DNA of 64,000 nt from an uncultured Caldithrix sp. Lineage in GTDB: Bacteria > Calditrichota > Calditrichia > RBG-13-44-9. A program made the translations under genes and the position numbers. This document shows positions 1-25,356 of the stretch, in pieces. The notes under the pieces are model-generated. The model had not been told where the DNA came from, ran no database searches, and worked only from the letters and a program-made list of their open reading frames with translations. Each line of letters begins with the position of its first letter. The stretch's first letter is position 1. The stretch spans positions 8,082-72,081 of the forward strand of contig CAYWTB010000001.1 in assembly GCA_964461135.1 (NCBI GenBank). Direction: 5' to 3'.

Positions 1-708
1 CACCTTGACGTTAAAATTTCCAATAAATCCGGACACATGCTCAATTTCACTGTAAGCTAAAAGCTTTATTCGGGGATGTCGACCGACATCCATCATCTTC
101 GGTCCCAGAATTCATATGGAACAATCCATGGTCGGATAAGTCTTATCCAGTGCCGCCATTATACCACCGATGCTGGGTTCTTTTTCCACCAGGTAAACCT
201 GATGCCCTGCATCTGCCAGATCCAGCGCCGTCTGAATGCCCGCCACGCCTCCACCCACCACCAGCGCGCTTTTTGTCACCGGTACCTCTGCCTCAGTTTG
301 CGGTTCCAGAACCCGGGCGCGAGCCACTGCACTTTTTACCAGATCTTTGGCTTTGGCAGTAGCTGCCTCTCTTTCGTTCTGATGCACCCAGCTACAGTGT
401 TCCCGGATATTGGCCATTTCATACAGGTAGGGATTTAAACCTGCATCCGCCACGCATTGCCTGAAGGTGGGTTCATGAATTTTAGGTGTACAGGAAGCCA
501 CAACCACACGATTCAGTTTGTGTTCCATGATGGCCCGCTTGATTTCATTCTGGCCCGGATCAGCACAGGTGTATTTGTTGCGTACCACTACTACTACATC
601 ATCCAGCGTCTCAGAATATTTTGCCACCTCAGCGCAATCCACCGTGCCGGCAATATTCAGACCGCAATCACATACAAATACACCGATTCGTAATTTTTCT
701 TCATTCAT
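1..708 (-). CDS. hdrA: Heterodisulfide reductase subunit A (HdrA) paralog. Selenoprotein with in-frame UGA at 112..114. 5'-proximal part only; the CDS continues past the window start.
   Basis: Starts [21 protein letters not shown] (HdrA N-terminal 4-Cys domain). An FAD-binding GxGxxG domain follows ([18 protein letters not shown]), ending ...[33 protein letters not shown]. The frame stays open through position 1 after the TGA. The TGA replaces the second Cys of the conserved HdrA DCxxC(I)L(A/G)PK motif. Confidence 0.8.
61..111 (-). promoter_or_regulatory. Candidate SECIS hairpin immediately 3' of the UGA (mRNA GGAUG-UCGGUCGA-CAUCC)
   Basis: An 18-nt stem-loop at 74..91 lies about 20 nt downstream of the UGA. 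The hairpin segment is nucleotide-identical to the one after the second hdrA UGA apart from one loop base. The codons between UGA and hairpin differ at wobble positions. Confidence 0.35.
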
Positions 709-764: not shown

Positions 765-1532
765 TTAAATGGGACCCTCCGGATATTGGGTAAATTCGGA
801 AATGGAATCGATCATCTTCCGGACGCGCTTATCATACGGATTTAATTCCAGAGCTTTATTAAGACTGTAGAGCGCCTCATGGTGTCTTTCCAGATTGTTA
901 TAAGCCTTGCCCAGGTGATAATAAGCCGCTTCGTGATCCGGATGAACTTTCAGAAGCCTTCGCAGTACTTTTATGGCCTCTTTATTCTCTCCCATGGTTA
1001 AATAAATGATTGCCAGGTCATATAAGGTAATGAAGGACTGCGGGTCCCTCTTCAGTGAATTCAGCAAAGATTCGATTGCCTGGTGTGTATGGCCTGCCCG
1101 GTAATTCATGAGGCCCAGCCAGTAATATGCCATGCTGAATTCCGGGTCAATTTCCACCACGTGGTGCATGGATTTTATAGCCTGGTTTAGCTGAGCAGAC
1201 CGGAAATAACACAGACTCAAATGATAATGAGCAAGTGCAAAATTGGGATCGATTTCCAGGATTTCCTCAAATGTTGAAATTGCTTTCTTAATGTGGCCTT
1301 TTAAATAATACAGGTGTCCCAGATCATGACGGTATGATATATTTTCAGGTTCCTGGCTGATTTTCTTCTTTATTTTCTCAATTGCATCCTGCAGCTTTAC
1401 GGTATCCGAAAATTTTTCGTTGCCAATTTTAAATTGAGATGATTTTACAGTTTTTTTTGAACTTTTCTTGGCATCAGACAATTTTTTAATCCCCTTTTCC
1501 TTTATCTCAACACAGTCTACAACGGAACACAT
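765..1532 (-). CDS. Tetratricopeptide-repeat (TPR) protein
   Basis: Multiple 34-aa TPR-like repeats (AxxYYxLGxxYxxxGxxxxAIxxFxxALxLxP pattern repeated). Lys-rich C-terminus. Confidence 0.7.
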   Translation of the reverse strand: MCSVVDCVEIKEKGIKKLSDAKKSSKKTVKSSQFKIGNEKFSDTVKLQDAIEKIKKKISQEPENISYRHDLGHLYYLKGHIKKAISTFEEILEIDPNFALAHYHLSLCYFRSAQLNQAIKSMHHVVEIDPEFSMAYYWLGLMNYRAGHTHQAIESLLNSLKRDPQSFITLYDLAIIYLTMGENKEAIKVLRRLLKVHPDHEAAYYHLGKAYNNLERHHEALYSLNKALELNPYDKRVRKMIDSISEFTQYPEGPI

Positions 1533-1906
1533 TTATATCCGTAATGGATAATTCCTGCCGCACCGTCCTCCGAAATACGGCGGAATTCTATTCTTAAGGG
1601 CATTCCGGTGGCCAGTTTTTTCAAATCGCAATCCGAAATCTGTGAAAGAATCTTTACGCCTTCTTTTAAACGCACAATTCCAATGGCATAGGGAACCTGG
1701 TCTGAAAACCGGGAAGGAGCTACATGAATGATGGTATAGGTTTCCAGATTCCCTTCCCTGGAAAGGGTAATGGTTTCAAATTTCCGTTCTCCGCATTCTG
1801 CACAAACCAGCCTTTTCGGGAAATGAACATTTCCGCACTTCCGGCATTTTCCGGCTTCCATTCGGTAGCGATGAGGCATTTCGCGCCAATATTTTGAGAC
1901 TGACAT
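1517..1906 (-). CDS. DUF35 / Zn-ribbon + OB-fold protein (thiolase-HMGCS scaffold partner)
   Basis: CRKCGNVHFPKRLVCAECG zinc-ribbon followed by an OB-fold-like segment, about 129 aa. Translationally coupled to the upstream thiolase by a start/stop overlap at 1906. Confidence 0.75.
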   Translation of the reverse strand: MSVSKYWREMPHRYRMEAGKCRKCGNVHFPKRLVCAECGERKFETITLSREGNLETYTIIHVAPSRFSDQVPYAIGIVRLKEGVKILSQISDCDLKKLATGMPLRIEFRRISEDGAAGIIHYGYKCVPL

Positions 1907-3066
1907 TACACCACCTCCAAAATATGAACAAGAGTACTTCCCCCGCTTCCTCCCATGTTCTGGGAAAGGCCGGTTCGGGCGTTTTCCACCTGCCGGGCAC
2001 CGCCCTCCCCCCGCAGCTGAGTGACAATTTCCACAATCTGAGCAACTCCGGTAGCTCCCACCGGATGACCTTTCGATTTCAATCCTCCGCTCACATTTAC
2101 CGGGATCTTACCTCCCAACCGTGTTGCGCCTGAGGCTGTAGCGTCCCCGCCCTTCCCCCGGGCTGCAAAGCCCAATTCTTCAATCACACATATTTCTGCG
2201 ATGGTAAAACAATCATGAACCTCACACAGGTCAATTTTTTCCGGGGAAGTTTCTGCCATTTTGTAGGCCAGTTGTGCTGCTTTTGCGGTTGCCGGCAGGG
2301 AGGTCAGATCGGATCGGTTGTGTAACGCTATGCTGGCTGTGGCATGACCGAAGCCTTTTATTCTTACCGGAGGTTTTTTGGATATCTTTTTAGCCAGATC
2401 CAGCGGGCACAGGATTATGGCGGCAGCTCCATCGGTTATGGGTGAGCAATCCAGGATTCGGAGGGGATCGGCAATCATAACCGAATTCATAACCTGTTCT
2501 AGGGTTATTTTCTGAGGGTACTGAGCCAGCGGATTCATTGAACCGTGGTAGTGATTTTTCACCGCCACTTCGGCCAGCTGTTCACGGGTAGTACCGTATT
2601 TCAGCATATGAGATCTGGCCATCATAGCGTACAGTCCCGGAAAAGTGATGCCATGATAAACCTCGTAATCCTGGTCGGCAGCGGTAGCCAGTGCATAGGT
2701 AGCTTCATCCGTACCCACATCAGTCATTTTTTCCACCCCACCCACCAAAACCACGTCGCTTAATCCCAGGGCAACATCCATATAACCCATTTTTACAGCC
2801 AGGCCTCCCGATGCACAAGCGGATTCCACCCGGGCTGCCGGAATGGGGGTTACTCCCAGGTAATCTGCCATAAGGGCAGCCAGGTGTTCCTGGCCGGTAA
2901 AAATTCCCGCTGTCATATTACCAATATACATGGAGTCGATCTTATCCACCCCGGCATCATCAATAGCGGATTGTGCAGCCTCCACAAAAATATCCCGCAG
3001 AGAACTCTCCCATAATTCCCCCCATCTGCTCAAACCAATGCCAATCACTGCTACATCACGACTCAC
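1906..3066 (-). CDS. Thiolase family protein (acetoacetyl-CoA thiolase-like, SCP-x/archaeal type)
   Basis: [11 protein letters not shown]...ESACASGG (active-site Cys) ...GHPVGATG. 386 aa, thiolase fold signatures. Confidence 0.85.
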
Positions 3067-3105
3067 ATTCCGCTCCTTGTTTTTGCCTGCTCATATTTAT
3101 TGCCA

Positions 3106-4152
3106 TCAACTGTTTTTAATTATTTTTCGCCGGTATTTCGAATAAAGACCATAATCGAGATATATTTTTTCACCCTGAATGAGATCCCACGTTTTAGGAG
3201 CAGCGTCCCTCACCCTGCTGATTCTGTCGGTAATCTTCCAGATAAAGCCGTCGCTTCCCGCACCCGAGCCGTAAGATACCATAAAGATCAAATCCCCGGG
3301 ATTTGACACATCCAGGATGGCGGTTAGTCCCAGGGGCGACGAACCGGAGTAGGTATTTCCGATTTTAGGGCAGAGTAATCCCTGTGAAATCTGATCCTTG
3401 CTGAAACCCAGCATTTGTCCCACCTTGGTGGGGAATTTTCCGTTGGGCTGATGGAACACGGCATAAGCAAAATCGGATGGTTTCAATCCCGATTTATCCA
3501 GCATTGTTTTACCACACTGATATACGTGCTTAAAATACGCGGGCTCGCCGGTAAAACGGCCACCATGTTGCGGATAGAACTGGTGTTCCCGGCGCCAGAA
3601 GTCCGGTGTATCACTCATGAAGGAAAAGGTGAGTTCACAGCTAGCAATCAAATTATCTTTTCCCATGATAAAAGCCGCCGCACCGGCCGAGGCTGTATAC
3701 TCCAAGGCATCGCCGGGCGCGCCCTGGGAAGTATCCGCCCCCACCGCCAGGGCGTATTTCATGCTGCCGGCCTTTACCAACTGCAGGGCAACAAACATTG
3801 CCTCCGTTCCCGCTTTACAGGCAAATTCAAAATCGGCGCAATGGGCGTCCGGAGTGGCACCGATAGCTTCTCCCAGGGTTGTCCCGCTGGGTTTAACGGC
3901 ATAAGGGTGCGATTCAGAACCCACATAAACCGCTCCGATATCCGAGGCCCGGATACCTGCTCTGGCCAATGCCCGGCGGGACGCTTCCACAGACATGGTA
4001 ATGGTATCCTGATCGGGAGCAGGCACGGACTTTTCCTCTACCATTAATCCCTTACGGTAACTTTCCGCATCTGCCCCCCACTGGCGGGCGATTTCTTCAA
4101 CCCGGATCCGATATTTTGGAACATAACTGCCATATCCAACAATACCAACCAT
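3106..4152 (-). CDS. Hydroxymethylglutaryl-CoA synthase-like condensing enzyme (archaeal type)
   Basis: MVGIVGYGSYVPKYRI...ADFEFACKAGT... 348 aa. Initiation-condensing-enzyme fold with catalytic Cys. Typical of the HMGCS that partners with thiolase and DUF35. Confidence 0.75.
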   Translation of the reverse strand: MVGIVGYGSYVPKYRIRVEEIARQWGADAESYRKGLMVEEKSVPAPDQDTITMSVEASRRALARAGIRASDIGAVYVGSESHPYAVKPSGTTLGEAIGATPDAHCADFEFACKAGTEAMFVALQLVKAGSMKYALAVGADTSQGAPGDALEYTASAGAAAFIMGKDNLIASCELTFSFMSDTPDFWRREHQFYPQHGGRFTGEPAYFKHVYQCGKTMLDKSGLKPSDFAYAVFHQPNGKFPTKVGQMLGFSKDQISQGLLCPKIGNTYSGSSPLGLTAILDVSNPGDLIFMVSYGSGAGSDGFIWKITDRISRVRDAAPKTWDLIQGEKIYLDYGLYSKYRRKIIKNS

Positions 4153-4215: not shown

Positions 4216-5469
4216 TCAGGCGATTGCCGGTTTAAAAATAAATGTGGCAACGGTTTTGTCATCGCCGCCCATATTGATCATCATCCCATAAGGTCTCCCG
4301 GATGTTAACGGAACCTGGTACTCCTCCGCCCTTCCGGTCAGTTGCTGCCAGAGATCTACCGCCTGGCGGACACCCGTCCCGCCGGTAGGATGACCAAATC
4401 CGATAAGTCCACCGCTGGCATTTACAGGTATTTGGCCGCCTATAGCCGTCTTTTTTTCACTGATAAAATCCGCAGCTTCCCCTTCCTCCACTATGCAGGC
4501 GGCTTCCAGGGCAAGTAACGCCGTTATGGTAAAACAATCATGAATTTCCATGACACCGATGTCGGACGGTTTCAATCCTGCGCTTTCATAGGCTTTTTCG
4601 ACTGCTTTCTGAGTGGTGGTCAATCGGGTAAGATCTTTTGGCGGTTGCTTAATATCATCAACGGCGATTCCCAGAGATACCAGTTCAATGGCATCCCTGC
4701 GATCAATATTCAGTTTTTTTAAGCCGTCTTCAGAAGCGACAATCAGGGCAGAACCTCCGTCAGTCACTTTGGAGCAATCAAAAACGTTTAAATGCTCAAC
4801 AAAATACTTGGGATTGGGTGGAGTCATACCAGAGGCAAAAAGATCGTCAGTGGAATTATGATATTCCTGGGCCTTGGGATTTTTCCGGGCATTTTGAATC
4901 GCCTGTTCATACCAGTGTGCCATGGCAGTCCGTATTTTTTCCTGGCCGTACTTCCGGTAGCAGGCACCCGCCCTCTGAGAAAATTTGTCAGGAAAGAAAT
5001 GCGCATGACCTTCTTTTCTTTCTCCCTCATAGTACCCTGCCCCGGCCAGAAAATCTGCCCCATATACCGCTTTTACCGAGTTCTGTACCTCAACTCCCAC
5101 TGTCAGGACAACATCGGAAATTCCGGAGAGAACACTTTTTATGGCGGTATAGACACCTAATCCACCCGAACCACAGGCTCCTTCAATACGGGAGCATGGT
5201 TTATACAATAAGGACGGATCAATGGAGGGAATGAAAGCGGCCAGATTGCCCTGACGGTTGAAACGTGCAGCCATAAAATTTGATACCACACCTTCATCGA
5301 TCAGGTCAGCCCGGTTATTAATCCGGGCAATTGCCCCTTTCCCGGCTTCAATGATGTAATAATCAATTCCCGGCCGCGGTTTTTTAGGATGAAATTCTCT
5401 TCGTCCCGATCCTAAAAATACCGTATTATAACCAGCGGTCAGAAATACAGGTTTAGTTAATTTATTCAT
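4216..5469 (-). CDS. Thiolase-like protein (acetyl-CoA C-acyltransferase family)
   Basis: 417 aa. ...CSRIEGACGSGG ... GHPTGGTG ... thiolase N- and C-domain motifs. Confidence 0.75.
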   Translation of the reverse strand: MNKLTKPVFLTAGYNTVFLGSGRREFHPKKPRPGIDYYIIEAGKGAIARINNRADLIDEGVVSNFMAARFNRQGNLAAFIPSIDPSLLYKPCSRIEGACGSGGLGVYTAIKSVLSGISDVVLTVGVEVQNSVKAVYGADFLAGAGYYEGERKEGHAHFFPDKFSQRAGACYRKYGQEKIRTAMAHWYEQAIQNARKNPKAQEYHNSTDDLFASGMTPPNPKYFVEHLNVFDCSKVTDGGSALIVASEDGLKKLNIDRRDAIELVSLGIAVDDIKQPPKDLTRLTTTQKAVEKAYESAGLKPSDIGVMEIHDCFTITALLALEAACIVEEGEAADFISEKKTAIGGQIPVNASGGLIGFGHPTGGTGVRQAVDLWQQLTGRAEEYQVPLTSGRPYGMMINMGGDDKTVATFIFKPAIA

Positions 5470-5515: not shown

Positions 5516-6856
5516 TTAAATATATTGATTTATGGGTCCATACAGATGATAGAACCCATTGAGCAACACCCCATTTACATCATCTTCCGAGCGGGCGACT
5601 CCGCTCTTCACCAGATTCCCGGCAATTTCCTTACTGTTCCGGAGATAATCCCTGGCCAGCACGGCACCCGGAGTGCCATCGGATTTAAGATTCCGGAAAT
5701 ATTGGGCAAGCTTTTCCTCCTTTTGAGGATCGCTCAGCAGTGCCCTCCAGGGAACAAATCCCAGCGGAGGATTTCCGGTTTTTTCTTCTGTTTTTTGCTT
5801 CCAGTCTCCTTCCTCAAACAGACGGTACCCGGATTTATCCGGATCATATACTCCGGATGGCCGGTTCTTTTCATACTTTAAGAATCCGTCTTTCTGGCTT
5901 CCCTCCGGATTCTGACCTCCCAGAACTTTCTGTTCGACCAGTTCATCAACTACCTTACTGTGCAGCTTCTCCTTTGGAAAATGAGGATTCATGGTTCGGA
6001 GAATACATTGAAACACATCAATTCCCACGTAATCAATTAGTTGAAAAATACCCATGGGGCGGATGAGAAAATCCTGACTGATTCGATTGAGAATATAAAC
6101 CCCCTCTACAAAACCGTATTCTTTCTGCAATTTTTCTACCTGATCCAGAGCATACAACCCATCGCGCATGAAGTGCCCGTTGCCAATAAAACCAGCCACA
6201 TCATTGGATGGAATGAGAGTTTTTCGTAGCCGTTTTCCGAGCTCCAGTCCCAATTCATGAAGCTCCGGATTTAATCCAACGGGCGAAATCACCTCTACCA
6301 GTTTCTGGACTGCCGGCGGATTGTAGAAATGATAACCGATGATTCTGCCACCTAATCCTGCCTGCTTATCCAGGAAACCTATGGGAATTGAGGAGGTGTT
6401 GGTGAGAAAGAACGCATCGTCTGAGCAAATCTTTTTTACTTTTTTCAGCAGAGATATCTTTAAATCCGCATCTTCCAGAACTGCTTCGAATATCATCCGT
6501 GAATTTTTCAACTGGCTCATATCAGTACTGATCCGGATATTCAGGAAAAAATCATTCACAAACTGGTTAATGAACTCATGATTTTCCACCAGTTCCTGAT
6601 GATCCTGGTATGCTTTCCGTAACATCCCGATATTTCTTTCCGCATGCTTGACAGCCTGGGTTCGGAGGTACTGCAGCAATCCTTCCAGCCTGGCGGCATC
6701 AGTATCAATGAGGTGCAATTCGCAGGTATCGTTTTTATGTTCGGGTGACAGACGCTGCATGGTCATTTCCTGGCCCATCAAAAGAGCAATTCCGCTTCCC
6801 ATTTTGCCGGCAGCACCTATTACACCCACATTACAAAGACGTTCATTCAATGTCAT
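5516..6856 (-). CDS. 3-hydroxyacyl-CoA dehydrogenase (long form, NAD-binding)
   Basis: VGVIGAAGKMGSGIA Rossmann motif and HBD-family C-terminal domain. 446 aa. Confidence 0.75.
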   Translation of the reverse strand: MTLNERLCNVGVIGAAGKMGSGIALLMGQEMTMQRLSPEHKNDTCELHLIDTDAARLEGLLQYLRTQAVKHAERNIGMLRKAYQDHQELVENHEFINQFVNDFFLNIRISTDMSQLKNSRMIFEAVLEDADLKISLLKKVKKICSDDAFFLTNTSSIPIGFLDKQAGLGGRIIGYHFYNPPAVQKLVEVISPVGLNPELHELGLELGKRLRKTLIPSNDVAGFIGNGHFMRDGLYALDQVEKLQKEYGFVEGVYILNRISQDFLIRPMGIFQLIDYVGIDVFQCILRTMNPHFPKEKLHSKVVDELVEQKVLGGQNPEGSQKDGFLKYEKNRPSGVYDPDKSGYRLFEEGDWKQKTEEKTGNPPLGFVPWRALLSDPQKEEKLAQYFRNLKSDGTPGAVLARDYLRNSKEIAGNLVKSGVARSEDDVNGVLLNGFYHLYGPINQYI

Positions 6857-6923: not shown

Positions 6924-8066
6924 CTAATTCAGGTTTTCGGCAATAATCTCTGTCAGATCTTTAATTTTAAAGGATATCTCTTCTTTTAACTGCTTATCCA
7001 GAAGAGCACACTGAAAGTGTATCTGGCACTTGGGACAGGAGGTCACCAGAATATCTGATCCGGTTGCCTGAGCTTCCCTTAAACGCCGGGCCTGAATCTG
7101 TTTTGAAATCTGCGAACAGTTCATCCAGCTGCTTACCCCGCAACAGATGGCTCGTTTATGATGGTGAGCCATCTCGGTCAGTGAAAGCCCTTTCAGCTGA
7201 GACAATGCCTGCCGGGGAGCATCATAAATACCCATATGCCTGCCCAGGCGGCAGGGATCCTGAAAACAGGCGGTAAGCGGTTGACCTTTCAATGAAACAG
7301 TGGTTTCGGGGAGCCGTTGTGCTAAAAACTCACTCACATGCTGCACTTCAAAATCAAGCTTTCCGAATAGTCCGGCGTATTCGACTTTCAGGGTGCGATA
7401 ACATTCGGGGCAGGCGGTAATGACGTATTTGGCTCCCGATTTTTTAATCTGTTCAATGTTCTGTTCAGCCAGTTTTCGAAAATTCTTTAAATCCCCGTTC
7501 CAGTAAAAATCATGTCCGCAACATTTTTCATTGGGCAATACCTGGGGTTTAATATCGAAATGATTCAAAATTTTCATCATACTGCGGGCAATATTTAAAG
7601 GCTGGACCTCAAGATCAGAAAACAGCGCCTCATAGTAAGGCAGGCAACCCACAAAGTATAAATAATCTCCAGACGTTGATGTCTGGTATTCTTTGCTTAG
7701 CCAGTCCAGCCGCTGCTGTTTGAGATCGGGTGAGGTCATGATTTTTAGAATTGAATCCAGAATGCCGCCATGGGAGCAGGTACCTTCGCGGTTCTCCACG
7801 CCCATAAATTGCCGCATCAGCTGAATAAACTCGATATATTTTATATGAGACGGGCAGATGGTATCACATTGCTGACAGGTTAAACAGGACCACAAATCCG
7901 CTCCCTTCAGTCCATCAGGATGAGTATTCCTTATGGATCTGATCAGGATAAGCCGTGGAGAAAAAGTCTTCGAATGACGGGAAACCGGGCACACACCGGT
8001 GCATTTGCCACATTCCAGACAGGCAAAGGCATTGGTTTCCTGAATTTGTTTAAAATTAAATTCCAT
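6924..8066 (-). CDS. hdrD: HdrD-like (fused HdrC+HdrB) Fe-S / CCG-domain protein
   Basis: Two 4Fe-4S ferredoxin motifs (CLECGKCTGVCP, CLTCQQCDTICP). Two cysteine-rich CCG domains follow (CCGHD...CPECY; CCGVSS...CPKCQ). Confidence 0.75.
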   Translation of the reverse strand: MEFNFKQIQETNAFACLECGKCTGVCPVSRHSKTFSPRLILIRSIRNTHPDGLKGADLWSCLTCQQCDTICPSHIKYIEFIQLMRQFMGVENREGTCSHGGILDSILKIMTSPDLKQQRLDWLSKEYQTSTSGDYLYFVGCLPYYEALFSDLEVQPLNIARSMMKILNHFDIKPQVLPNEKCCGHDFYWNGDLKNFRKLAEQNIEQIKKSGAKYVITACPECYRTLKVEYAGLFGKLDFEVQHVSEFLAQRLPETTVSLKGQPLTACFQDPCRLGRHMGIYDAPRQALSQLKGLSLTEMAHHHKRAICCGVSSWMNCSQISKQIQARRLREAQATGSDILVTSCPKCQIHFQCALLDKQLKEEISFKIKDLTEIIAENLN

Positions 8067-8092: not shown

Positions 8093-8572
8093 TTAAGCAT
8101 TGGCGGCAATTTTATCTTTTTGTGCGGAGACGCTGTCTTCCTTAATGGATTTCAGGGGAGTAGGTCCCAGCTTCCTCACCTCTTCCACCATTTCCTTAAC
8201 AACTTTTACAAACTTGGGAAATTCAGCTGCAGAGATGAATTCCTGCCGTATTCTTTCCTTCTCAAATCCCAGCATTCTGACCACTGCCTTCAGTTTTTTA
8301 TATTGTTCCGCCGCCTTGCGGGCACCGAAACTGTAATGGCAATCCTCAAAGTGGCAGCCGGATACCAGTACTCCGTCCGCTCCCATCTCCAGCGCTTTCA
8401 GGACATGTGCGGGATTGACCCGTCCCATGCACATGGTACGAATGATCCGGATATTGGCAGGATACTGCATCCGGTTAATCCCGGCGGAATCAGCCGCGGG
8501 ATAACTGCACCAGTTACAGGCGAATACGACAATCCTCGGTTCAAACTCTTTCTTTGCAGCTTTTCGGGTCAT
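8093..8572 (-). CDS. mvhD: MvhD-like hydrogenase iron-sulfur subunit (HdrA electron-transfer partner)
   Basis: IVVFACNWCSYPAADSAG ... VSGCHFEDCHY: the MvhD signature. Confidence 0.85.
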   Translation of the reverse strand: MTRKAAKKEFEPRIVVFACNWCSYPAADSAGINRMQYPANIRIIRTMCMGRVNPAHVLKALEMGADGVLVSGCHFEDCHYSFGARKAAEQYKKLKAVVRMLGFEKERIRQEFISAAEFPKFVKVVKEMVEEVRKLGPTPLKSIKEDSVSAQKDKIAANA

Positions 8573-8621: not shown

Positions 8622-11600
8622 CTAAACGGCCTCCTCTTCCAGTAAAAATGCCCTGAGCATGGATTCAATCTGGCGATCCCGGAAATGCTGAATGTCAATG
8701 GCACTGGTGGGACAGAAGGTTGCGCAGGTTCCGCATCCTTTGCAGAGGGCTTCATTAACTGTTGCCAGCATAATTCCACCCCTATCCTGCAGAGAGAGTG
8801 CACCGAATTCACACACTTCCACACAGGTACCGCATCCACGACACAAATCCTCCCTCACAGACGAAACCAGTGGTTCCATCAGAATTGTGGATCTGGCCAG
8901 CAAAGCATCTATTTTTGCGGCCACCGCATTAGCCTGTCCGATGGAATCGGAAATATCCTTGGGGCTCTGTACGCATCCGCAGATAAATACTCCTTCAATA
9001 TTGGTTTCCACCGGACCAAACTTGGGATGCTTTTCCAGTAAATATCCGTCCATACCCACCGGAACTTTTATGAACTGCTGGATATGTTCGATTGAGCCGG
9101 AAGAGGGACGCATGCCGACCGACAGGATCAGAAGATCAACCGGAACTTCTATATCGGTTTTCAAAGATGGTTCCCAAAACCGAAGAGTTTCCACATTCTT
9201 ATGGCCGGTCAGCCGCGGAAGATCCTGCGGCGTAAAGCGTACAAACCTGACTCCCAGCTCCCGGGCCTGCCGGTACATGGTTTCAGCTTCATGGTGATAT
9301 ACCCGGATATCACGGTTAAAAACGGTAACTTCTATTCCCCGCTGCCGTAAAGCAATCGACTGCTTAATGGCCGCCTGGCAGCAATATCTTGAACATTCGG
9401 GCAATCCTTCCGGCCCGCGGGACCCCACGCACTGGATAAATGCCACCTGTTTGATTTCTTTTCCGTCAATGGCCAGCAACTGCTCCTTCTTCAAACGATT
9501 TTCCAGTTCCATGTTGGTGATGACATTTTTATATTTGCCATACCCGAACTCATTCTTGACGGGTTCATATAAACTGAATCCGGTTGCCAGAACAATAGCA
9601 CCCACCATGAACGGTTTATTCTCAGACTTTCCGTTAGTGGATTTCAGAGTGACTTCAAAATTCCCCACGAAACCTTTAATATCCTCAATATCGGTATCTG
9701 TAAATATTTTTACTTTGTCTTTATTTAATTCCTGCACTTTACTCCGGATCAGTTCTTTACCGGACATTCCGCTGGGATAAAGGATCTCCAGCTCTTTTAC
9801 CCATCCTCCCAGGGCCTTGTCTTTTTCCACCAGCAGGACGTTGTAATCCCGTTTTCCCAGCTGAAGCGCCGTTTCAATGCCCGAAATTCCGCCACCGATA
9901 ACCAGCACGTCATGTCCGATTTCCATCTCCTTCGGCTCCAGCGGTTCCAGCTGCCGCACCCTGGCCACCGCCATGCGGAGCAGGTCTTTTGCCTTACGCG
10001 TGGCCGCATCCGCAGCCTGCCCATGAACCCAGGAACATTGATCCCGGATATTAGCCATCTCCAGCAGATAAGGATTAAGGCCCACCTTGCGCAAGGTTTC
10101 CCGGAATATCGGTTCATGAGTACGAGGAGTACAGGCAGCCACCACCACCCGGTTAAGACGGTTAGATAATATTTTTTCCTGTATATTCCTTTGAGTACTC
10201 TCGGCACAGGCGAAGAGGAGATCTTCGGAGAATACCACATCCGGCAATCCGAGCGCATAATCCTTGAGAGTTTCCACATCCAGAACACCGGCGATATTGG
10301 ATCCGCAATGGCACACAAAGACGCCTACCCTCGGAGATCCGCTATAGTCGTATTCCGGGATTTCCTCTTTGATTTCGGGCATTTTATGGTGGGTAAGAAA
10401 CTGGGCGGCTCTCACTGCCGCACCCGAAGCCTCTGCAATAGAATCGGTAATATCCTTGGGACCGGTGGTGCATCCACACAGATAAATGCCTTCACGCCGG
10501 GATGATATGGGATCTCCGCAACGGTCTCTGGGAAGGAAAAATCCGCGGCTATCGGTTTTGATCTCCAGAATTTCCGCCAGGCTGTGGGACTCGGCAGCCG
10601 GTACCACCGCTTCCGATAAAATAACCATGCCGGTGCGCAATTTATCCGTCTGTCCGGTTTCCACATTTTCATTGAGAATGACCAGATCTCTGCTGCCGGG
10701 GTCTTCCACAATGCGGGACGGTTTTCCTCTGATAAAATGAATATTTTTATCGTGTAACGCTCTCTGATAAAATTGTTCAAATCCTTTACCAAATGCACGG
10801 ATGTCAATATAAAAAATATCAACACTGGTCTTGGGATACATTTCGCGTATCAGCAGAGCACTTTTTATGGCGTTCATGCAGCATATTCTGCTGCAGTAAG
10901 GTATATCCCGGCGGATACACCGCGATCCCACGCATTGAATGAATGAGACCCGCTTCGGTGGTTTCTGGTCGGTAAACCTGACTAATTGTCCCCCGGAAGG
11001 GCCGCTGGGACTGAGCAGCCGTTCAAGTTCGATGCTGTTTACCACATTTTCGAAACGTGTATATCCGTATTCGCTGGCCTCCCGCGGATCATAATAATCA
11101 ATACCGGTGGCAATAATGACTGCCCCCACATCAATCTCTTCCGTTCTATCCGGCATATCCAGATCAATGCAATTTTTCTGGCAGACGTCCACGCATTTTC
11201 CGCAGGCAATGGGATTGGTACCAAGACAATCATCGGCAGACCGGATATAGGCGGATGGAACGGCTTGTGAAAATGGAGAGTAAATAGCTCGCCGCAGGCA
11301 TAATCCTTCATCAAACTCATTGGGCTGAACTACAGGACAGACGTCCGAACAATCTCCGCAGGCGGTACATTCCGCTTCATTTACAAATCTGGCTTTACGA
11401 AGAATTTTTGCTCGGAAATTTCCGGCCTTGCCTGAAAGTCTAACAAGTTCTGCATTGGTATACAACTGAATTCTGGGATGCCGACCGACATCCATCATCT
11501 TGGGACCGAGAATTCAGATAGCGCAGTCCATGCTGGGAAAAGTCTTGTCCAGCTTGGCCATGGTTCCACCAATACTGGGCTGCTTTTCCAGCAGGTATAC

Positions 11601-11699
11601 CTGGAATTGGGCATCAGCCAGGTCCAGCGCCGCCTGAATTCCGGAAATACCTGCCCCCACAATCAAAGCACCCTTGGGTCTTTCTGATCTGGAAACCAT
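8622..11699 (-). CDS. hdrA: Tandem-domain heterodisulfide reductase subunit A (HdrA). Selenoprotein with in-frame UGA at 11514..11516. About 1024 aa.
   Basis: The ORF track splits it into 11514..11699 and 8622..11498, but ...[27 protein letters not shown]... is in frame. Architecture: FAD domain ([19 protein letters not shown]), then 2x[4Fe-4S] ferredoxin and a 4-Cys [10 protein letters not shown] domain. A second FAD domain ([15 protein letters not shown]) lacking the Cys/Sec motif and a C-terminal 2x[4Fe-4S] ferredoxin follow. Confidence 0.85.
11463..11513 (-). promoter_or_regulatory. Candidate SECIS hairpin 3' of the UGA (mRNA GGAUG-UCGGUCGG-CAUCC)
   Basis: Stem-loop at 11476..11493. The same element is found after the UGA of the hdrA paralog at 112. 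Confidence 0.35.
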
Positions 11700-11809: not shown

Positions 11810-12379
11810 TCAGGCAACACTTTTTTTAGGAGACTCCAGCAGACTTTTTCCGTATTGAAAACCGGTTTCAAAGGCTTTTAGATTGAGCTCTTCCGTTCCC
11901 GGAGGAACAGATGTTTCAACGGCTTTTTTGGTAGCCTCATAGGACGTAATCCCGGTAACGGCGGAGAAAAATCCCACCATAATAATATTGGTAACAATCT
12001 TGCGGCCCATTTCTTCCGCCAGGCGGGTGGCCGGAATGGCATAGGTGGAGACTTTTTTTGAATTCTTTGCAAGGTGCACCAGATCCTTTTCCACCAGTAA
12101 TATACCATCCTCCGGAATTTCTCCGCTGAATTTGTCATGCGCATCCCGGGACAGGAGGACTCCTATATTAGGTTGAATAAGGTAGGGGTAAAGAATCTGC
12201 GACTCGGAAATGATAACCTGGGCTGAACAGGAACTCCCGCGCGCTTCAGGTCCGAAACTCTGAATCAGGGTGGAATATTTATTATCATAAATAGCTGCTG
12301 CTTTCCCGATAATATAACCCGCCAGGATAATTCCCTGCCCGCCAAATCCGGCGATACGAATTTCACTGTTTTTCTTCAT
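11810..12379 (-). CDS. 2-oxoacid:ferredoxin oxidoreductase, gamma subunit
   Basis: EIRIAGFGGQGIILAG... Por/Vor/Kor gamma family. 190 aa. Confidence 0.8.
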   Translation of the reverse strand: MKKNSEIRIAGFGGQGIILAGYIIGKAAAIYDNKYSTLIQSFGPEARGSSCSAQVIISESQILYPYLIQPNIGVLLSRDAHDKFSGEIPEDGILLVEKDLVHLAKNSKKVSTYAIPATRLAEEMGRKIVTNIIMVGFFSAVTGITSYEATKKAVETSVPPGTEELNLKAFETGFQYGKSLLESPKKSVA

Positions 12380-13286
12380 GCACAACCCCGTAAGGTTTAA
12401 ATTTGTTCCCTAATTTCTTCTGCAGATATTCATTGTACTGATCCAGATAGGAGGGTTTATCTATATCAATAAATTTCCCAACCTTTATTTCTTCCTGAAA
12501 CTGGATAGAAACATCACGAACATCGGCACCATGTGCTATGACAGAATTATCATGATAAAATTTCATCAGATCCAGACCGCTTCCCAGGCGGTTTTTGCGG
12601 GCGTAGAGAGTTGTACAGGGGCAGATTATTTCCACAAAGGAAAAACCCTTTTTATGCAAGGCTTCATTTATAGAGTTGGTGAGCCGCCTGACGTGCAGGG
12701 CGGTCCAGCGGGCCACGTACACCGCACCACAGGAGGCTGCCAGCAACGGAAGATTAAAGGGATTTTCATAACTCCCATAGGGAGCGGTAGTGGCAATTGC
12801 AGTAAGCGGAGTGGTTGGTGCCAGTTGACCACCGGTCATGGCATATATAAAATTATTAATACACAATACAGTGATATCAAGATTGCGCCTGGCGGTATGG
12901 ATGAAGTGATTGCCTCCGATGGAAATCAGGTCACCATCCCCACTAAAAACCACTACCTTCAGTTTTGGCTTGGCCAGTTTCAGGCCCACGGCAAACGGAA
13001 TGGCACGGCCGTGAGTGGTATGAAAGGAATCCAGTTTAATATAACCGGCGATTCGTCCGCTGCAACCGATCCCGGACACAACACTGATATCCTCCTTTGG
13101 AATCTGTGATTTTTTCACTGCTTCAATAAAACAGGTTACCGCTGTTCCAATTCCGCAGGTCGAACACCAGATATGAGGAATCCGATCCATCCGCAGCCAT
13201 TCCGAGAGAGGATGTTCCGCACCGTTCTCCTGTTCTTTTTTAGTTTTTGTCCCGGGCTTGACTTTTTCGATAACTTCGGCTTTCAT
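12363..13286 (-). CDS. 2-oxoacid:ferredoxin oxidoreductase, beta subunit (TPP-binding)
   Basis: WCSTCGIG...GIGCSGR...GDGD TPP-binding motifs. Start ATG overlaps the alpha stop (ATGA). Confidence 0.85.
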   Translation of the reverse strand: MKAEVIEKVKPGTKTKKEQENGAEHPLSEWLRMDRIPHIWCSTCGIGTAVTCFIEAVKKSQIPKEDISVVSGIGCSGRIAGYIKLDSFHTTHGRAIPFAVGLKLAKPKLKVVVFSGDGDLISIGGNHFIHTARRNLDITVLCINNFIYAMTGGQLAPTTPLTAIATTAPYGSYENPFNLPLLAASCGAVYVARWTALHVRRLTNSINEALHKKGFSFVEIICPCTTLYARKNRLGSGLDLMKFYHDNSVIAHGADVRDVSIQFQEEIKVGKFIDIDKPSYLDQYNEYLQKKLGNKFKPYGVVHEEKQ

Positions 13287-14443
13287 TTATGTGCCTCCTT
13301 AATTGCCTCTTGGATACATTCCGGCCTGTGAACCGTTCCACCGCCATGGGGGACAAGTAAAGTCTTACATTGTCCGCCTGTACACCGTTCAACCTCATAA
13401 ACAATCTGGCCGTAATTCATCTCCGGTACCACAAACGCCTTTATTTTGGGAGCCAGCTTCCGAATCAGATTTTCCGGAAACGGCCATACAGTAATGAGAC
13501 GGACATGACCGATTTTTTTAATTCCATCCTCCTGCGCCAGCTGAATTCCTCGCAGCGCAACCCGGGAAGTTATACCATAAGAGATCACCACAATTTCAGC
13601 ATCATTCAGATTTTCTTCTTCGTAAATATAAATATCATCAGCGTTCTTTTTAATTTTATCTATCAGGCGGTGAACACATTTCTCCTGAGTCTGCCAGCTC
13701 ATGTCAGGATATCCCCGTTCATCATGAGTCAGTCCGGTCACATGAAAAAAGTGGCCGCGACCCGCCTCTACCATATCGGGTACCAGGTCTTCTCCCGCTT
13801 CGAAGGGCAGATATTGTCCAGGCTTTTTACTGGTAAATCGACGGGGAAACAACTCAATTTTTTCGGGTTCCGGAATCACCACTTTTTCAGTCATATGGCC
13901 GACGCATTCATCCATCATGAATAAAACCGGTACCCGGTATTTTTCAGATAAATTAAAGGCGGTAATGGTAAGATCGAAGCATTCCTGCGGTGAATTGGGG
14001 CAGAGGGCAATAATTTCGTAGTCTCCGTGTGATCCCCAGCGGGCCTGCATCATATCCGCCTGGCCGGGAAGTGTAGGCAATCCGGTTGAGGGTCCGCCCC
14101 GCTGAACGTTCACCACCACGCATGGAGTTTCCAGCATGACCCCCAGGCCAATATTCTCCATCATTAGTGAGAATCCCGGACCTGAGGTTACCGTCATGGA
14201 TTTTGCCCCTGCCCATGATGCTCCCAGGATAGCCGCCATGGAAGCAAGTTCATCCTCCATCTGAATGAACATACCACCTACCATGGGAAATCGTTCGGAT
14301 ATCCGCTCGGCGACTTCGGTTGAGGGAGTAATCGGATATCCCGCAAAGAACCGGCAGCCTGCCGCCAGACCACCTTCCGCACAGGCCTTATCACCATCCA
14401 GATAATGCATGCCGGTTAATACCCCTGCCGAATCAGCTTTCAT
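13283..14443 (-). CDS. 2-oxoacid:ferredoxin oxidoreductase, alpha subunit
   Basis: GYPITPSTE...VTSGPGFSLM family motifs. Start placed at the internal ATG (MKADSAG) preceded by AAGGAG. The upstream extension in the ORF track overlaps the delta gene. Confidence 0.85.
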   Translation of the reverse strand: MKADSAGVLTGMHYLDGDKACAEGGLAAGCRFFAGYPITPSTEVAERISERFPMVGGMFIQMEDELASMAAILGASWAGAKSMTVTSGPGFSLMMENIGLGVMLETPCVVVNVQRGGPSTGLPTLPGQADMMQARWGSHGDYEIIALCPNSPQECFDLTITAFNLSEKYRVPVLFMMDECVGHMTEKVVIPEPEKIELFPRRFTSKKPGQYLPFEAGEDLVPDMVEAGRGHFFHVTGLTHDERGYPDMSWQTQEKCVHRLIDKIKKNADDIYIYEEENLNDAEIVVISYGITSRVALRGIQLAQEDGIKKIGHVRLITVWPFPENLIRKLAPKIKAFVVPEMNYGQIVYEVERCTGGQCKTLLVPHGGGTVHRPECIQEAIKEAHK

Positions 14444-14714
14444 GTGCTCGCTCCTTTTCGTTCTGAAGTACACAATATATCGCAAATTCCGGGCATAACA
14501 TCTCACACAGCTGACAATGAACACAGATAGTCCCATTCTTTACAATCGGGGGATGGTAACCTTTGGAATTGAATTCTGTGGAAAGTTCTAGAACATCTTT
14601 GGGGCAATATTCCACGCAAAAACCACACCCTTTACATCGTTCCCATAGAATATGAAGCTCTCCGTGAGGAATTTTTACCCGGTCGATATCCAACGGTTTA
14701 CGCCAATATTTCAT
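14433..14714 (-). CDS. 2-oxoacid:ferredoxin oxidoreductase, delta subunit (2x[4Fe-4S] ferredoxin)
   Basis: CKGCGFCVEYCP and CVHCQLCEMLCP motifs. 93 aa. Confidence 0.85.
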   Translation of the reverse strand: MKYWRKPLDIDRVKIPHGELHILWERCKGCGFCVEYCPKDVLELSTEFNSKGYHPPIVKNGTICVHCQLCEMLCPEFAIYCVLQNEKERAHES

Positions 14715-19225: not shown

Positions 19226-19566
19226 TGAAAGTTCCTCCTAAGATGAAAAGATTATTTCAAATCATTCAGTTTTTATCTGACCTCATGCCAGAGTTTTTAT
19301 ACACATAATTATTTTAGCCTTTAGACCATATTTTCAGAAACAGAATTGACAAAAAAGTGAACTGTTTTTATTTAAGGCTCACCTCTCATGCAATTTGCTC
19401 TTTTATTTTCGCGGCTTCACAGAGTATGCTGTTTGAACCTGCATATTATTCAATCCGCAACAATCCATACGTCTTTTCCCATAGCGTTTTTCATTTCTGC
19501 GGGCTATTTCTTCCAGCCATTTTTTTTTACCAAGCATGATAATTATACTCCCAACTGGTGTTGAAA

Positions 19567-20034
19567 CTAACCTCCAGAATTTTTGATTATTTTGCCCATA
19601 AGTAACATACCGGTTGCGGGAGCCCTGCCGGAGATACGGGGTGAAAACCATTTCGACCGTTCTATCCATCTGTTCAGAATATACAGAACCGGTACAGACA
19701 GAAGAAACCCCGCAACCGCTCCCCAGATCCCGCTATTCTGAGATCTGACGATACCTGTCCCTGCAAAATAGCCTGCAATAATAAATAAAATCGGCAACAG
19801 GAATACAATCAATGAGGCCATAATTCTTGGGCTTTCTTTGTATTCCAGGTAAACCATTTCTCCCTGCCGGATACCCTCCACGGTGGGTACTTCAATAAAA
19901 CGGTAATTCGAATTCGGCCCCGCAAACACACAGGCAGTTTTGGCAGCACAGACACTGCATTGTTCTCCCGTATGCAGCTGCACAGTTGTACTTTTTCCGT
20001 CTATTTCGGTAATTTTGCCAATCTCGCGACCCAT
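19567..20034 (-). CDS. RseC/MucC-like protein (Cys-rich N-terminal domain plus 2 TM helices)
   Basis: CSVCAAKTAC motif followed by two hydrophobic helices. 155 aa. Confidence 0.45.
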   Translation of the reverse strand: MGREIGKITEIDGKSTTVQLHTGEQCSVCAAKTACVFAGPNSNYRFIEVPTVEGIRQGEMVYLEYKESPRIMASLIVFLLPILFIIAGYFAGTGIVRSQNSGIWGAVAGFLLSVPVLYILNRWIERSKWFSPRISGRAPATGMLLMGKIIKNSGG

Positions 20035-20481
20035 GTTTTCAACCTCTACTTATTACCCGTCTTTAAACTATATAAACACAAAAATGATGCCATTATCAAT
20101 AATGTTTAAGATTTTATATAATTATTAAAATCCGATTAAATATTCACTTTTTTCCTGTTGAATATTCTACAAAATCAACACGAATCGTAGAATTTTCATC
20201 AGGCATCCCCGGATAATCTTCACAAGGCTTCTTCTTTCAGGCATCTCCACGAATAATAAACGAGAAGCCGGCATATAACTACTTCACCTGAACATTTTGG
20301 AGACTTTCCCTGAATGCCCGGTAAACGTTCTCCCAGGGATGCAGTTTGATATGCACTTCAGTGACTCCGAACGGTTTGACAATGGGCAGGACTACCGGTC
20401 AGAGACTGGCAAACCGGTTAGACGGTAATTTCAAATCCAGCACTACCCAGTGTTTCCCTGCCGCCAGCGAACGGCCGCTAT

Positions 20482-25327: not shown

Positions 25328-25356
25328 ATAAAATTATATTTTAAAATTCTCTTTTT

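Follow-up and report, generated by a model that had tools for sequence, protein, structure and literature searches.

The closest described system is the thiolase/HMG-CoA synthase (HMGCS)/DUF35 complex of Methanothermococcus thermolithotrophicus, whose structures (PDB 6ESQ and 6ET9) are reportedly the work of Vögeli et al. in 2018. In this assembly the DUF35 protein holds the two condensing enzymes together and one CoA arm serves both active sites, the chemistry being 3 acetyl-CoA + H2O ⇌ HMG-CoA + 2 CoA. Two bacterial systems are also relevant, namely the Liu (leucine/isovalerate utilisation) cluster of Pseudomonas, composed of IVD, methylcrotonyl-CoA carboxylase (MCC) alpha and beta, methylglutaconyl-CoA hydratase and HMG-CoA lyase, and the alternative isovaleryl-CoA pathway of Myxococcus xanthus, composed of MvaS, LiuC, AibA/B and AibC. 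The Methanothermococcus complex is described in PMC12960953, where the defining residues are the E-C-H-N tetrad of the synthase (E82/C114/H238/N270), the CxS, HDxF and GHx motifs of the thiolase and four zinc-binding cysteines, and where HMG-CoA synthesis is the only demonstrated activity of the fold with an intact tetrad. In the same paper the three domains were found together at 1,030 bacterial loci, 1,001 of them without secondary-metabolism neighbours, and leucine or carboxylase neighbours are not mentioned.

The window analyzed here is a 64-kb stretch of DNA from a diderm, sediment-type Calditrichia bacterium. The genome is identified as bacterial by TolC, CusA/CusB, GmhA/GmhB and GlgA, all recovered in family scans of the window, and by nearest named homologs in Caldithrix/Calditrichia MAGs (76–85% identity). 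The ORF list contains three adjacent, co-directional genes on the minus strand, in the order HMGCS (3106–4152, 348 aa), thiolase (1906–3066, 386 aa with a GTG start) and DUF35 (1517–1906, 129 aa). HMGCS and thiolase are separated by 39 nt, whereas the thiolase stop and DUF35 start share one base (GTG TAATG TCA), which bears out both the adjacency and the translational coupling proposed in the original prediction. Each gene is preceded by its own Shine-Dalgarno sequence (AAGGAG, AAGGAG and GGAGG, respectively). Two plus-strand ORFs inside HMGCS (3415–4047 and 3617–3904) were rejected as antisense by-products. The arrangement is not due to chance, because the same gene order was found in all 69 species-level loci compared.

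The HMGCS protein scored 537.7 bits against the NCBIfam archaeal HMG-CoA synthase model TIGR00748 (cutoff 353) and 542.6 against PRK04262 (cutoff 244). The SCP2-type acetoacetyl-CoA thiolase scored 552.4 against the subfamily model PRK06064 (cutoff 420) and 533.8, slightly below the cutoff of 600, against NF053570, the M. thermolithotrophicus equivalog. The DUF35 protein, a zinc ribbon followed by an OB fold, matched the Pfam families zf-ChsH2 (PF12172) and OB_ChsH2_C (PF01796) and no equivalog model in the NCBIfam profile search. The best PDB matches of the three proteins were the three subunits of 6ESQ (chain I for HMGCS, 466 bits; chain A for the thiolase, 386 bits; chain E for DUF35, 123.6 bits), with 62%, 50% and 45% identity to the respective M. 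thermolithotrophicus proteins. An archaeal-type trio is thus present in a bacterium, as had been claimed. The assignment of the condensing enzyme as HMGCS rather than FabH/KAS-III also stands, since the fabH model TIGR00747 gave only 86 bits (cutoff 292) and the PDB entry of E. coli FabH reached 69.5 bits, compared with 466 for the archaeal synthase.

The trio retains every catalytic and every zinc-binding residue of the Methanothermococcus complex. The HMGCS tetrad is intact (E80/C112/H234/N266) and invariant in 70 of 70 relatives. The thiolase carries Cys84 in CAS, His284 in HDCF and the GHx motif at GH333-P, its Cys, Ser, His, Asp and Phe positions being kept in 61 of 61 relatives, and the DUF35 zinc ribbon retains Cys21, Cys24, Cys35 and Cys38. 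On the basis of 45–62% identity to the crystallized complex, the three proteins are predicted to form a complex of the same kind, with a fused CoA-binding site and the ability to make HMG-CoA from acetyl-CoA. A zinc-ribbon/OB DUF35 protein with an HDxF SCP2-type thiolase is also found in the BbsAB benzoylsuccinyl-CoA thiolase, in ChsH2/Ltp2 and in the Sulfolobus fatty-acid synthase complex; however, scores to these were much lower (BbsA 53 bits, cutoff 250; BbsB 227 bits, cutoff 750) and those assemblies lack an HMGCS partner. The locus resembles the M. thermolithotrophicus system in its three adjacent genes, catalytic tetrad, thiolase motifs and zinc ribbon, but differs in its diderm bacterial host, in having acyl-CoA and electron-transfer genes as neighbors, with MCC in sister genomes, and in lacking recognized isoprenoid genes nearby.

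Bacterial copies of the trio are nothing unusual. When one genome per species was scanned, at least 593 relatives were recovered; of these, the top 80, taken as species-level loci, span more than 10 phylum-level lineages; together with the 1,030 loci already published, this contradicts the rarity that the original prediction had implied. Among 55 informative loci, defined by at least 2.5 kb of downstream sequence, an MCC-beta ortholog was present in 41, directly downstream in 32 of them, and MCC-beta, a LiuC/AtuE-like methylglutaconyl-CoA-hydratase-like gene and biotin carboxylase occurred together in 36, from phyla other than that of the window. The fetched locus lacked a close MCC-beta ortholog in the other 14, two of which (L084 and L087) have a divergent carboxyltransferase with hydratase and biotin carboxylase. 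The 535-aa carboxyltransferase of the relatives scored 738 bits against MCC-beta of P. aeruginosa (3U9R) and at most 290 bits against entries that group with PCC-beta, while an adjoining 516-aa paralog showed the reverse pattern. The top match of the 535-aa protein, 9tps (768 bits), carries the deposited name propionyl CoA carboxylase beta but groups by score with the MCC-type entries. The best family of the relatives' hydratase was PRK05674, at 286 bits against a cutoff of 426. Other recurrent neighbors were PCC, methylmalonyl-CoA mutase, acyl-CoA dehydrogenase, thiolase II and a dehydrogenase, a set that fits a branched-chain catabolic island. In some loci and lineages, for example in Aminicenantes (L005), the trio stands alone in a housekeeping context, as expected for a biosynthetic role.

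Upstream of the trio in the window, on the same strand, are a second thiolase (4216–5469, 417 aa) with Cys, HDCF and GHP motifs, which recurs beside the trio and best matched the trypanosomatid SCP2-thiolases 4BI9 and 3ZBG in the PDB (about 250–260 bits), and a 3-hydroxyacyl-CoA dehydrogenase family protein (HCDH; 5516–6856, 446 aa) with 3HCDH_N and 3HCDH Pfam domains and an insertion in the NAD domain. Every NCBIfam match of the dehydrogenase was below cutoff and its PDB matches did not exceed 86 bits; the two genes are paired in L004, L007, L008, L090 and L093. Farther upstream, again on the minus strand, family matches identified an HdrBC-like CCG protein (6924–8066), MvhD (8093–8572) and an HdrA-like selenoprotein (8622–11,699) that starts at an upstream ATG at 11,699 and contains an in-frame TGA at 11,514–11,516 within the sequence MDCAI*ILGPK. 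Still farther upstream are the gamma, beta and alpha subunits of a 2-oxoacid:ferredoxin oxidoreductase (OFOR; 11,810–14,536, minus strand), of which alpha scored 575 bits against PRK08659 (cutoff 411) and beta and gamma scored below the cutoffs of their families. The run from these genes to the trio, including HCDH and the second thiolase, has gaps of 26–110 nt. The fermentative acyl-CoA cluster of the original prediction fits only in part; the second thiolase and HCDH give way upstream to an HdrA/MvhD/HdrBC-like set and OFOR.

Directly after DUF35 lies a TPR-family protein (765–1532, minus strand, 255 aa as called) whose ATG at 1532 has no Shine-Dalgarno sequence and whose homologs of 233–252 aa (cluster c37) adjoin the trio in L004 and L007. 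Beyond it is the N-terminal part of a second HdrA-like selenoprotein (112–708, minus strand), which matches HdrA2 profile positions 1–192 and ends at the TGA at 112–114; the protein reading goes on past this TGA, and the frame runs on to the left edge of the window. Family scans also found a branched-chain aminotransferase, a second aminotransferase and an ADP-forming acyl-CoA synthetase in the window, which together with OFOR count in favor of the proposed peptide-fermenting lifestyle.

Four sister Calditrichia-like loci (L004, L090, L092 and L093) show HCDH, the second thiolase (truncated in L092) and the trio thiolase, then MCC-beta, biotin carboxylase and BCCP. The carboxylase genes come directly after DUF35 in L004, L092 and L093, with a small gene homologous or equivalent to the TPR gene behind them, while L090 contains MCC and has neither HMGCS nor DUF35 among its called genes. 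The HdrA, MvhD and CCG genes are also present upstream in L004 and L093, in the same order as in the window. The carboxylase genes are missing after DUF35 in this window and in L010, and no hydratase adjoins the trio in the Calditrichia sister loci. Because a tblastn search of the window (E ≤ 1e-10) found no MCC, biotin carboxylase, hydratase or acyl-CoA dehydrogenase, the leucine link suggested for this particular genome rests on the synteny of its relatives.

We consider it about an even chance (roughly 0.5) that, in a Calditrichia bacterium living by peptide fermentation, the trio serves as the HMG-CoA node of leucine and branched-chain acyl-CoA metabolism, with HMG-CoA cleavage as the likeliest direction. 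It is placed at this node because the bacterial unit is usually followed by MCC and a hydratase-like gene with no HMG-CoA lyase nearby, and it probably functions here in the metabolism of amino-acid carbon, since the bacterial trio usually lies beside genes of leucine breakdown rather than of isoprenoid synthesis. Of the functions initially put forward, the leucine/HMG-CoA option is thus favored, both by the 41 loci with MCC-beta, 36 of them with hydratase and biotin carboxylase, and by the four sister loci. As in the Liu cluster, the relatives have MCC-beta, biotin carboxylase, BCCP, a LiuC/AtuE-like hydratase and often an acyl-CoA dehydrogenase, here beside the trio. Unlike in that cluster, MCC is split into biotin carboxylase and BCCP instead of one alpha subunit, the trio sits at the place of the lyase gene, and the window itself has no MCC genes, hydratase or lyase motif. 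The canonical lyase motif E.G.RDG.Q was found neither in the window nor in the 1.37 Mb of neighborhoods of about 90 loci, and the annotated recurrent neighbor clusters contained no match to an HMGL-like family.

MCC and methylglutaconyl-CoA hydratase would turn leucine-derived 3-methylcrotonyl-CoA into HMG-CoA, which the trio could then convert to acetoacetyl-CoA and acetyl-CoA and finally to three acetyl-CoA. The trio would thereby stand in for the lyase, and all carbon would be conserved as thioester that can drive ATP synthesis. Under physiological conditions the HMG-CoA synthase reaction is regarded as irreversible, and no thiolase/HMGCS/DUF35 complex is known to cleave HMG-CoA. Of the two steps, condensation by the thiolase is strongly endergonic and the HMGCS reaction exergonic, so by our own estimate their sum may be near equilibrium, and the in vivo reversal of citrate synthase provides a precedent. 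We put forward the cleavage direction only tentatively. A lyase or a reductase could also be encoded outside the window and the loci scanned.

A start of the mevalonate pathway as in archaea, with HMG-CoA made from acetyl-CoA for HMG-CoA reductase (HMGR) and for isoprenoids such as undecaprenol, quinones and possibly the substrates of GGGPS, is a less probable explanation that nevertheless deserves weight. The orthology and the intact catalytic residues match the only characterized complex of this type, some lineages have the trio by itself among housekeeping genes, and the MCC and hydratase of the relatives could be a feeder line from leucine to HMG-CoA. Leucine-to-mevalonate routes exist in haloarchaea, trypanosomatids and myxobacteria. 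However, scans with canonical motifs found no HMGR, and no GHMP kinase motif was present, in the window or in the 1.37 Mb around the trio in about 90 loci; family scans found no mevalonate-pathway families among the large ORFs of the window, and the dominant neighbors of the trio are catabolic enzymes. One genome with both trio and MCC (L059) has an IspD gene at a distance of 9 kb, and PMC11129491 describes complete MEP pathways in MAGs of Ignavibacteriaceae and Planctomycetota. The GGGPS homolog predicted at 41,420 is real (41,420–42,169; 271.5 bits against PRK04169.1-2, cutoff 247) and could be counted for a mevalonate role, but it lends the proposed link no support, since GGGPS/DGGGPS orthologs were reported for every one of the 12 FCB-group phyla in a survey that included Caldithrix (PMC6431249). 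Judged from gene neighborhoods, the bacterial module mostly does not appear to be a stand-alone mevalonate starter.

The common intermediates and the hydratase neighbor would also suit an anabolic route from acetyl-CoA through HMG-CoA, 3-methylglutaconyl-CoA and 3-methylcrotonyl-CoA to isovaleryl-CoA, analogous to the MvaS/LiuC/AibAB pathway of M. xanthus. The isovaleryl-CoA would prime iso-branched fatty acids or, through reductive carboxylation by OFOR, give leucine; the window encodes this OFOR as well as a branched-chain aminotransferase. FCB bacteria commonly contain iso-C15 lipids, and the myxobacterial pathway sets a precedent for tying an HMG-CoA synthase to 3-methylglutaconyl-CoA chemistry outside isoprenoid synthesis. 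Nevertheless, this route is improbable: in the myxobacterial system MvaS is of the bacterial type and has no DUF35 partner, and the decarboxylase resembles a CoA-transferase, whereas the partner here includes a biotin carboxylase subunit that depends on ATP, a hallmark of catabolism in the carboxylating direction. The annotated recurrent neighbor clusters showed no likeness to an AibA/B-type decarboxylase or reductase, and the PCC and methylmalonyl-CoA mutase neighbors point to catabolism. Somewhat less credible still is a locus that mainly handles acetoacetyl-CoA between acetyl-CoA and 3-hydroxybutyryl-CoA, with the HMGCS step secondary and the two thiolases and HCDH forming a butyrate- or PHA-type electron sink linked to the Hdr-like module. 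The close spacing of HCDH, second thiolase and trio directly behind HdrA/MvhD/CCG and OFOR would fit, as would the DUF35 proteins that scaffold thiolase-reductase assemblies in archaea (bioRxiv 10.1101/2024.07.05.601840), but the window contains no crotonase or butyryl-CoA dehydrogenase, and the invariant HMGCS tetrad of all relatives argues for selection on HMG-CoA chemistry. Finally, the tripartite architecture is shared with PhlACB of Pseudomonas, MucABC of Streptococcus and the P. fluorescens ACAT/HMGS-DUF35 complex, and PhlA, PhlC and PhlB were the next-best PDB matches after 6ESQ for HMGCS and DUF35 and lower-ranked ones for the thiolase. A repurposed Friedel-Crafts C-acyltransferase of secondary metabolism is still hardly conceivable, as the Phl scores were less than half those to 6ESQ and no PKS or NRPS gene lies near the trio. 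All three of these systems have lost the HMGS tetrad, and Phl and Muc also HDxF (PMC12960953); the trio keeps both, so its membership in the PhlACB/MucABC type is effectively refuted by this residue test.

For the leucine reading, the wider implication is that in many bacterial phyla HMG-CoA lyase may have been supplanted, at the final step of leucine/isovalerate catabolism, by an archaeal-type complex running backwards, a proposal that we regard as possible but on balance doubtful. If true, converting HMG-CoA and two CoA to three acetyl-CoA would save one thioester, and potentially one ATP, per leucine, and a supposedly irreversible synthase would be reversed in a manner comparable to citrate synthase. 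The Calditrichia version would in addition be connected with an HdrA/MvhD module that contains selenocysteine and with a 2-oxoacid:ferredoxin oxidoreductase.

Three adjacent genes on the minus strand of the window correspond to the HMG-CoA synthase (HMGCS), thiolase, and DUF35 proteins of archaea. The HMGCS gene (3106-4152, 348 aa) lies above both curated archaeal HMG-CoA synthase cutoffs, at 537.7 versus 353 for TIGR00748 and 542.6 versus 244 for PRK04262, and the fabH model reaches only 86 bits on it. It is followed by an SCP2-type thiolase (1906-3066, 386 aa, GTG start), which scores 552 bits against PRK06064 (cutoff 420) and 533.8 bits against the Methanothermococcus equivalog (cutoff 600), and by a 129-aa DUF35 protein with a ChsH2 zinc ribbon and OB fold (1517-1906). 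The top PDB match of each product was the respective subunit of 6ESQ, the thiolase/HMGCS/DUF35 complex of Methanothermococcus thermolithotrophicus, with 466, 386, and 124 bits and identities of 62, 50, and 45% for HMGCS, thiolase, and DUF35, respectively. The original prediction of such a trio in a bacterial genome was therefore confirmed, and the translational coupling that it proposed is seen as TAATG, in which the thiolase stop overlaps the DUF35 start. A Shine-Dalgarno sequence precedes each of the three genes.

Liao et al. 2026 (PMC12960953) distinguish the HMG-CoA–forming complex from repurposed bacterial descendants by three thiolase motifs, CxS, HDxF, and GHx, together with the HMGS tetrad (E-C-H-N). 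In the window, the tetrad is intact (E80/C112/H234/N266), as are the thiolase motifs C84 (CxS), H284-D-C-F (HDxF), and G-H333 (GHx), and all four zinc-ribbon cysteines of DUF35 are present. Because the tetrad and the thiolase motifs are all retained, a Phl/Muc-type acyltransferase, excluded by the intact tetrad and HDxF, and the dead-HMGS form found in the Pseudomonas fluorescens complex were both ruled out; unlike the latter, the window HMGS keeps its tetrad. A FabH/KAS-III identity was excluded by the family and PDB scores. The locus specifies an ortholog of the channeling complex that is complete in its catalytic residues. The trio is reportedly present in some bacterial genomes according to work by Vögeli in 2018, and 1,030 bacterial loci have been reported (PMC12960953). 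The window trio, a textbook-grade ortholog, adds only one more bacterial member.

The source of the window is a diderm bacterium, as TolC, CusA/CusB, a copper P-type ATPase, GmhA/GmhB, and GlgA are encoded in it; an archaeal origin of the contig was ruled out by GlgA, TolC, CusCBA, and the genes for LPS heptose. Among named HMGCS homologs, the nearest belong to Caldithrix/Calditrichia MAGs (76-85% identity), with which the window sequence clusters in a quick neighbor-joining tree. The GC content of the window peaks (0.515 versus 0.37-0.50 elsewhere) in the 2-kb bin 2001-4000, which takes in the greater part of the thiolase and HMGCS genes, but the excess is too small to argue recent transfer. 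A copper/silver resistance block (17135-26655) combines a CopA-type P-type ATPase with a CusC/CusB/CusA-like RND system, and a similar CusCBA set adjoins the trio in L002 and L003, two loci from MAGs labeled Caldithrix abyssi. These same two loci carry a 113-aa gene of the 23S_rRNA_IVP family (PF05635) between HMGCS and thiolase (11087-11428 and 5691-6032, respectively).

A scan with HMGCS, one genome per species, returned at least 593 relatives, of which the best 80 (65-83% identity; best matches rather than a random sample) were compared. By title these span more than 10 phylum-level lineages, namely, Calditrichota, Zixibacteria, Ignavibacteria/Chlorobiota, Aminicenantes, Acidobacteriota, Eisenbacteria, Planctomycetota, Coatesbacteria, Glassbacteria, Cytophagia, Myxococcia, and others, with the proviso that MAG titles can be wrong and that "Eubacteriales," for example, may be unreliable. 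The HMGCS-thiolase-DUF35 order was found in 69 of 69 loci, the HMGS tetrad was unchanged in all 70 sequences, and the Cys, Ser, His, Asp, and Phe positions of the thiolase were unchanged in 61/61. In an alignment of 60 trio-associated DUF35 sequences including the M. thermolithotrophicus reference, 10 were missing one or more of the four zinc-ribbon cysteines, replaced among others by Phe, Ser, Asp, or Thr; the partner enzymes of these 10 keep every catalytic residue. Among the close HMGCS matches, a single sequence carried an archaeal label (P0088, Candidatus Hadarchaeum, 72% identity), but it was rejected as a sign of recent interdomain transfer; since it is nested inside a bacterial Zhuqueibacterota-like subclade of the quick neighbor-joining tree and lies on a 6.3-kb contig, it is probably a misbinned bacterial contig.

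To characterize the surroundings of the trio in relatives, about 1,300 neighboring ORFs were clustered and then searched by tblastn with reference proteins, on which the counts rest because the ORFs of the relatives had been called only roughly. Among the 55 informative loci, those with at least 2.5 kb beyond DUF35, 41 harbor a 535-aa carboxyltransferase that shares 60% identity or more with the protein from L004, a Calditrichia-like locus, and in 32 of those 41 it lies directly downstream of the trio on the same strand. This protein is the β subunit of methylcrotonyl-CoA carboxylase (MCC): it scores 738 bits to Pseudomonas aeruginosa 3U9R and 730 to human MCCC2, whereas geranyl-CoA carboxylase reaches 479 and entries grouping with the β subunit of propionyl-CoA carboxylase (PCC) no more than 290, and its homologs bear the NCBI name methylcrotonoyl-CoA carboxylase. 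Its top match, 9tps (768 bits), was deposited as "propionyl CoA carboxylase beta" and scores with the MCC-type set. A distinct 516-aa carboxyltransferase of several loci is PCC-β (737 bits to 3N6R) and sits with methylmalonyl-CoA mutase. MCC-β occurs together with an enoyl-CoA hydratase and a biotin carboxylase in 36 loci; the best family of the hydratase is the LiuC/AtuE-like PRK05674, with a score below the cutoff. Often next in these loci are a thiolase II, a dehydrogenase, and an acyl-CoA dehydrogenase. Motifs of HMG-CoA reductase, GHMP kinases, and HMG-CoA lyase were absent from 1.37 Mb of loci, a scan that detects canonical enzymes only and that, like all absences reported here for the relatives, covers up to 10 kb on either side of the trio. 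Overall, the relatives' loci read as an island for branched-chain acyl-CoA catabolism that contains the trio but lacks the HMG-CoA lyase gene usual in such a setting.

Genes of the AtuA family (PF07287, acyclic terpene utilization) were also observed in five loci from Ignavibacteria, Chlorobiota, and Zixibacteria, adjoining the trio or MCC in four of them: beside the trio in L048 and L058, just before MCC-β in L088, and between the trio and MCC-β in L070, with L031 carrying the gene farther downstream.

That the trio goes together with MCC and the hydratase emerged from the comparison of relatives and is no property of the window, in which tblastn (E ≤ 1e-10) found no MCC, hydratase, or acyl-CoA dehydrogenase. 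Among the sister Calditrichia-like loci L004, L090, L092, and L093, the arrangement is clearest in L004 and L093, where the order is HdrA, MvhD, HdrBC-like CCG protein, 3-hydroxyacyl-CoA dehydrogenase, second thiolase, HMGCS, thiolase, DUF35, MCC-β, biotin carboxylase, its carrier protein BCCP, a small TPR-like gene, and HdrA. It is visible only from a truncated second thiolase onward in L092 (CP070707.1, a 4.06-Mb chromosome), and the genes called in L090, whose contig stops after BCCP, include neither HMGCS nor DUF35. The window and the compared locus L010 show the same locus minus MCC-β, biotin carboxylase, and BCCP; in the window, the DUF35 gene runs straight into the TPR ORF (1517-1532). 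The presence of the MCC genes in the sisters and their absence here points to their loss or relocation in the lineage of the window. None of the Calditrichia loci compared has a hydratase adjoining the trio.

Upstream of the trio, genes on the same strand follow one another with gaps of 26-110 nt. A second, catalytically complete thiolase (4216-5469, 417 aa) is closest to the trypanosomatid SCP2-thiolases 4BI9 and 3ZBG, and next to it lies an unusual 446-aa 3-hydroxyacyl-CoA dehydrogenase with an insertion in the NAD domain (5516-6856). These two genes are always paired, and the pair recurs near the trio in five Calditrichia-like and Zhuqueibacterota-like loci (L004, L007, L008, L090, and L093). 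Farther upstream are the CCG protein, MvhD, an HdrA-like protein, and a three-subunit 2-oxoacid:ferredoxin oxidoreductase, and downstream of the trio the TPR protein is followed by a second HdrA-like gene. Each HdrA-like gene is interrupted by one in-frame TGA on the minus strand (11514-11516 and 112-114), past which the frame stays open; both lie within a motif containing MDC(A/S) and are probably selenocysteine codons. With readthrough, the first HdrA-like gene would start from an ATG at 11699 and comprise 1026 codons (8622-11699), whereas the ORF called has 958 aa. Promoter-like sites (24 versus 24.5 expected from shuffling) and terminator-like sites (26 versus 17.2 ± 4.3) were near expectation and none was placed between cluster genes, so that these scans mark no operon boundary; no tRNA or Rfam element was found in the window. 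Together with the oxidoreductase, an ADP-forming acyl-CoA synthetase (50315-52432), a PLP aminotransferase (58306-59511), and a branched-chain amino-acid transaminase (59531-60700) outline amino-acid fermentation with substrate-level phosphorylation, which fits an amino-acid fermenter.

On the basis of synteny, the bacterial module may work at an HMG-CoA node that MCC and the hydratase supply, in the flow of leucine or isovalerate carbon. For the source organism, we give roughly even odds (about 0.5) to a role at this node of leucine/acyl-CoA metabolism rather than as a dedicated mevalonate starter. The ATP-dependent biotin carboxylase and the catabolic neighbors suggest that HMG-CoA would be produced from leucine, and with neither lyase nor reductase in sight, its conversion to three acetyl-CoA by the trio would be the simplest fate. 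By homology, DUF35 would clamp the thiolase and HMGCS, and a shared CoA site would couple both reactions. Thiolase condensation is strongly endergonic and the HMGCS reaction exergonic, so that the sum is estimated to be near equilibrium and could go either way with the CoA/acetyl-CoA ratio; citrate synthase run backward offers a precedent. No HMGCS is known to cleave HMG-CoA, and this direction is proposed tentatively, as a possibility with the odds against it.

A start of the mevalonate pathway, which is the only demonstrated role of the complex, is rated the less likely reading here. Stand-alone trios in housekeeping contexts in some lineages, such as L005 beside YggS/YggT/DivIVA, would suit that role; however, no mevalonate-pathway gene lies within 10 kb on either side of any trio. 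Moreover, the Ignavibacteria locus L059, which has both trio and MCC, encodes a bona fide IspD 9 kb away (TIGR00453, 218.5 versus a cutoff of 181.3), and MAGs of Ignavibacteriaceae and Planctomycetota have been described as having the full MEP pathway (PMC11129491). This IspD was the sole match when Escherichia coli Dxs, Dxr, IspD, IspF, IspG, and IspH were searched by tblastn against 1.43 Mb of loci, as expected given how little of the genomes these loci sample. Family and motif scans recognized no isoprenoid-precursor genes within the window. Its GGGPS-family gene (41420-42169, above NCBIfam cutoffs), originally pointed out alongside the trio, is of no help to a mevalonate link, since a survey of 12 FCB-group phyla, Caldithrix among them, reported GGGPS and DGGGPS orthologs in every one (PMC6431249), and the gene is wedged between GmhB (40697-41290) and GmhA (42111-42803). 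This placement among LPS heptose, glycosyltransferase, and flippase genes suggests a cell-envelope role. The literature searched contained nothing relevant on Calditrichota or Caldithrix with mevalonate, HMG-CoA, or isoprenoids.

The pattern of interest is the catalytically intact complex in operonic association with MCC and a methylglutaconyl-CoA-hydratase-like gene across these lineages, with neither lyase nor reductase nearby, a combination mentioned neither in PMC12960953 nor elsewhere in the literature searched. If the trio feeds a mevalonate pathway, it would represent a widespread archaeal-type pathway entry in bacteria. If the complex cleaves HMG-CoA, it would add a second case of an "irreversible" synthase that is in fact reversible, and the energetics of leucine fermentation would have to be modeled differently for abundant sediment bacteria, Calditrichota, Zixibacteria, Aminicenantes, and Ignavibacteria among them.
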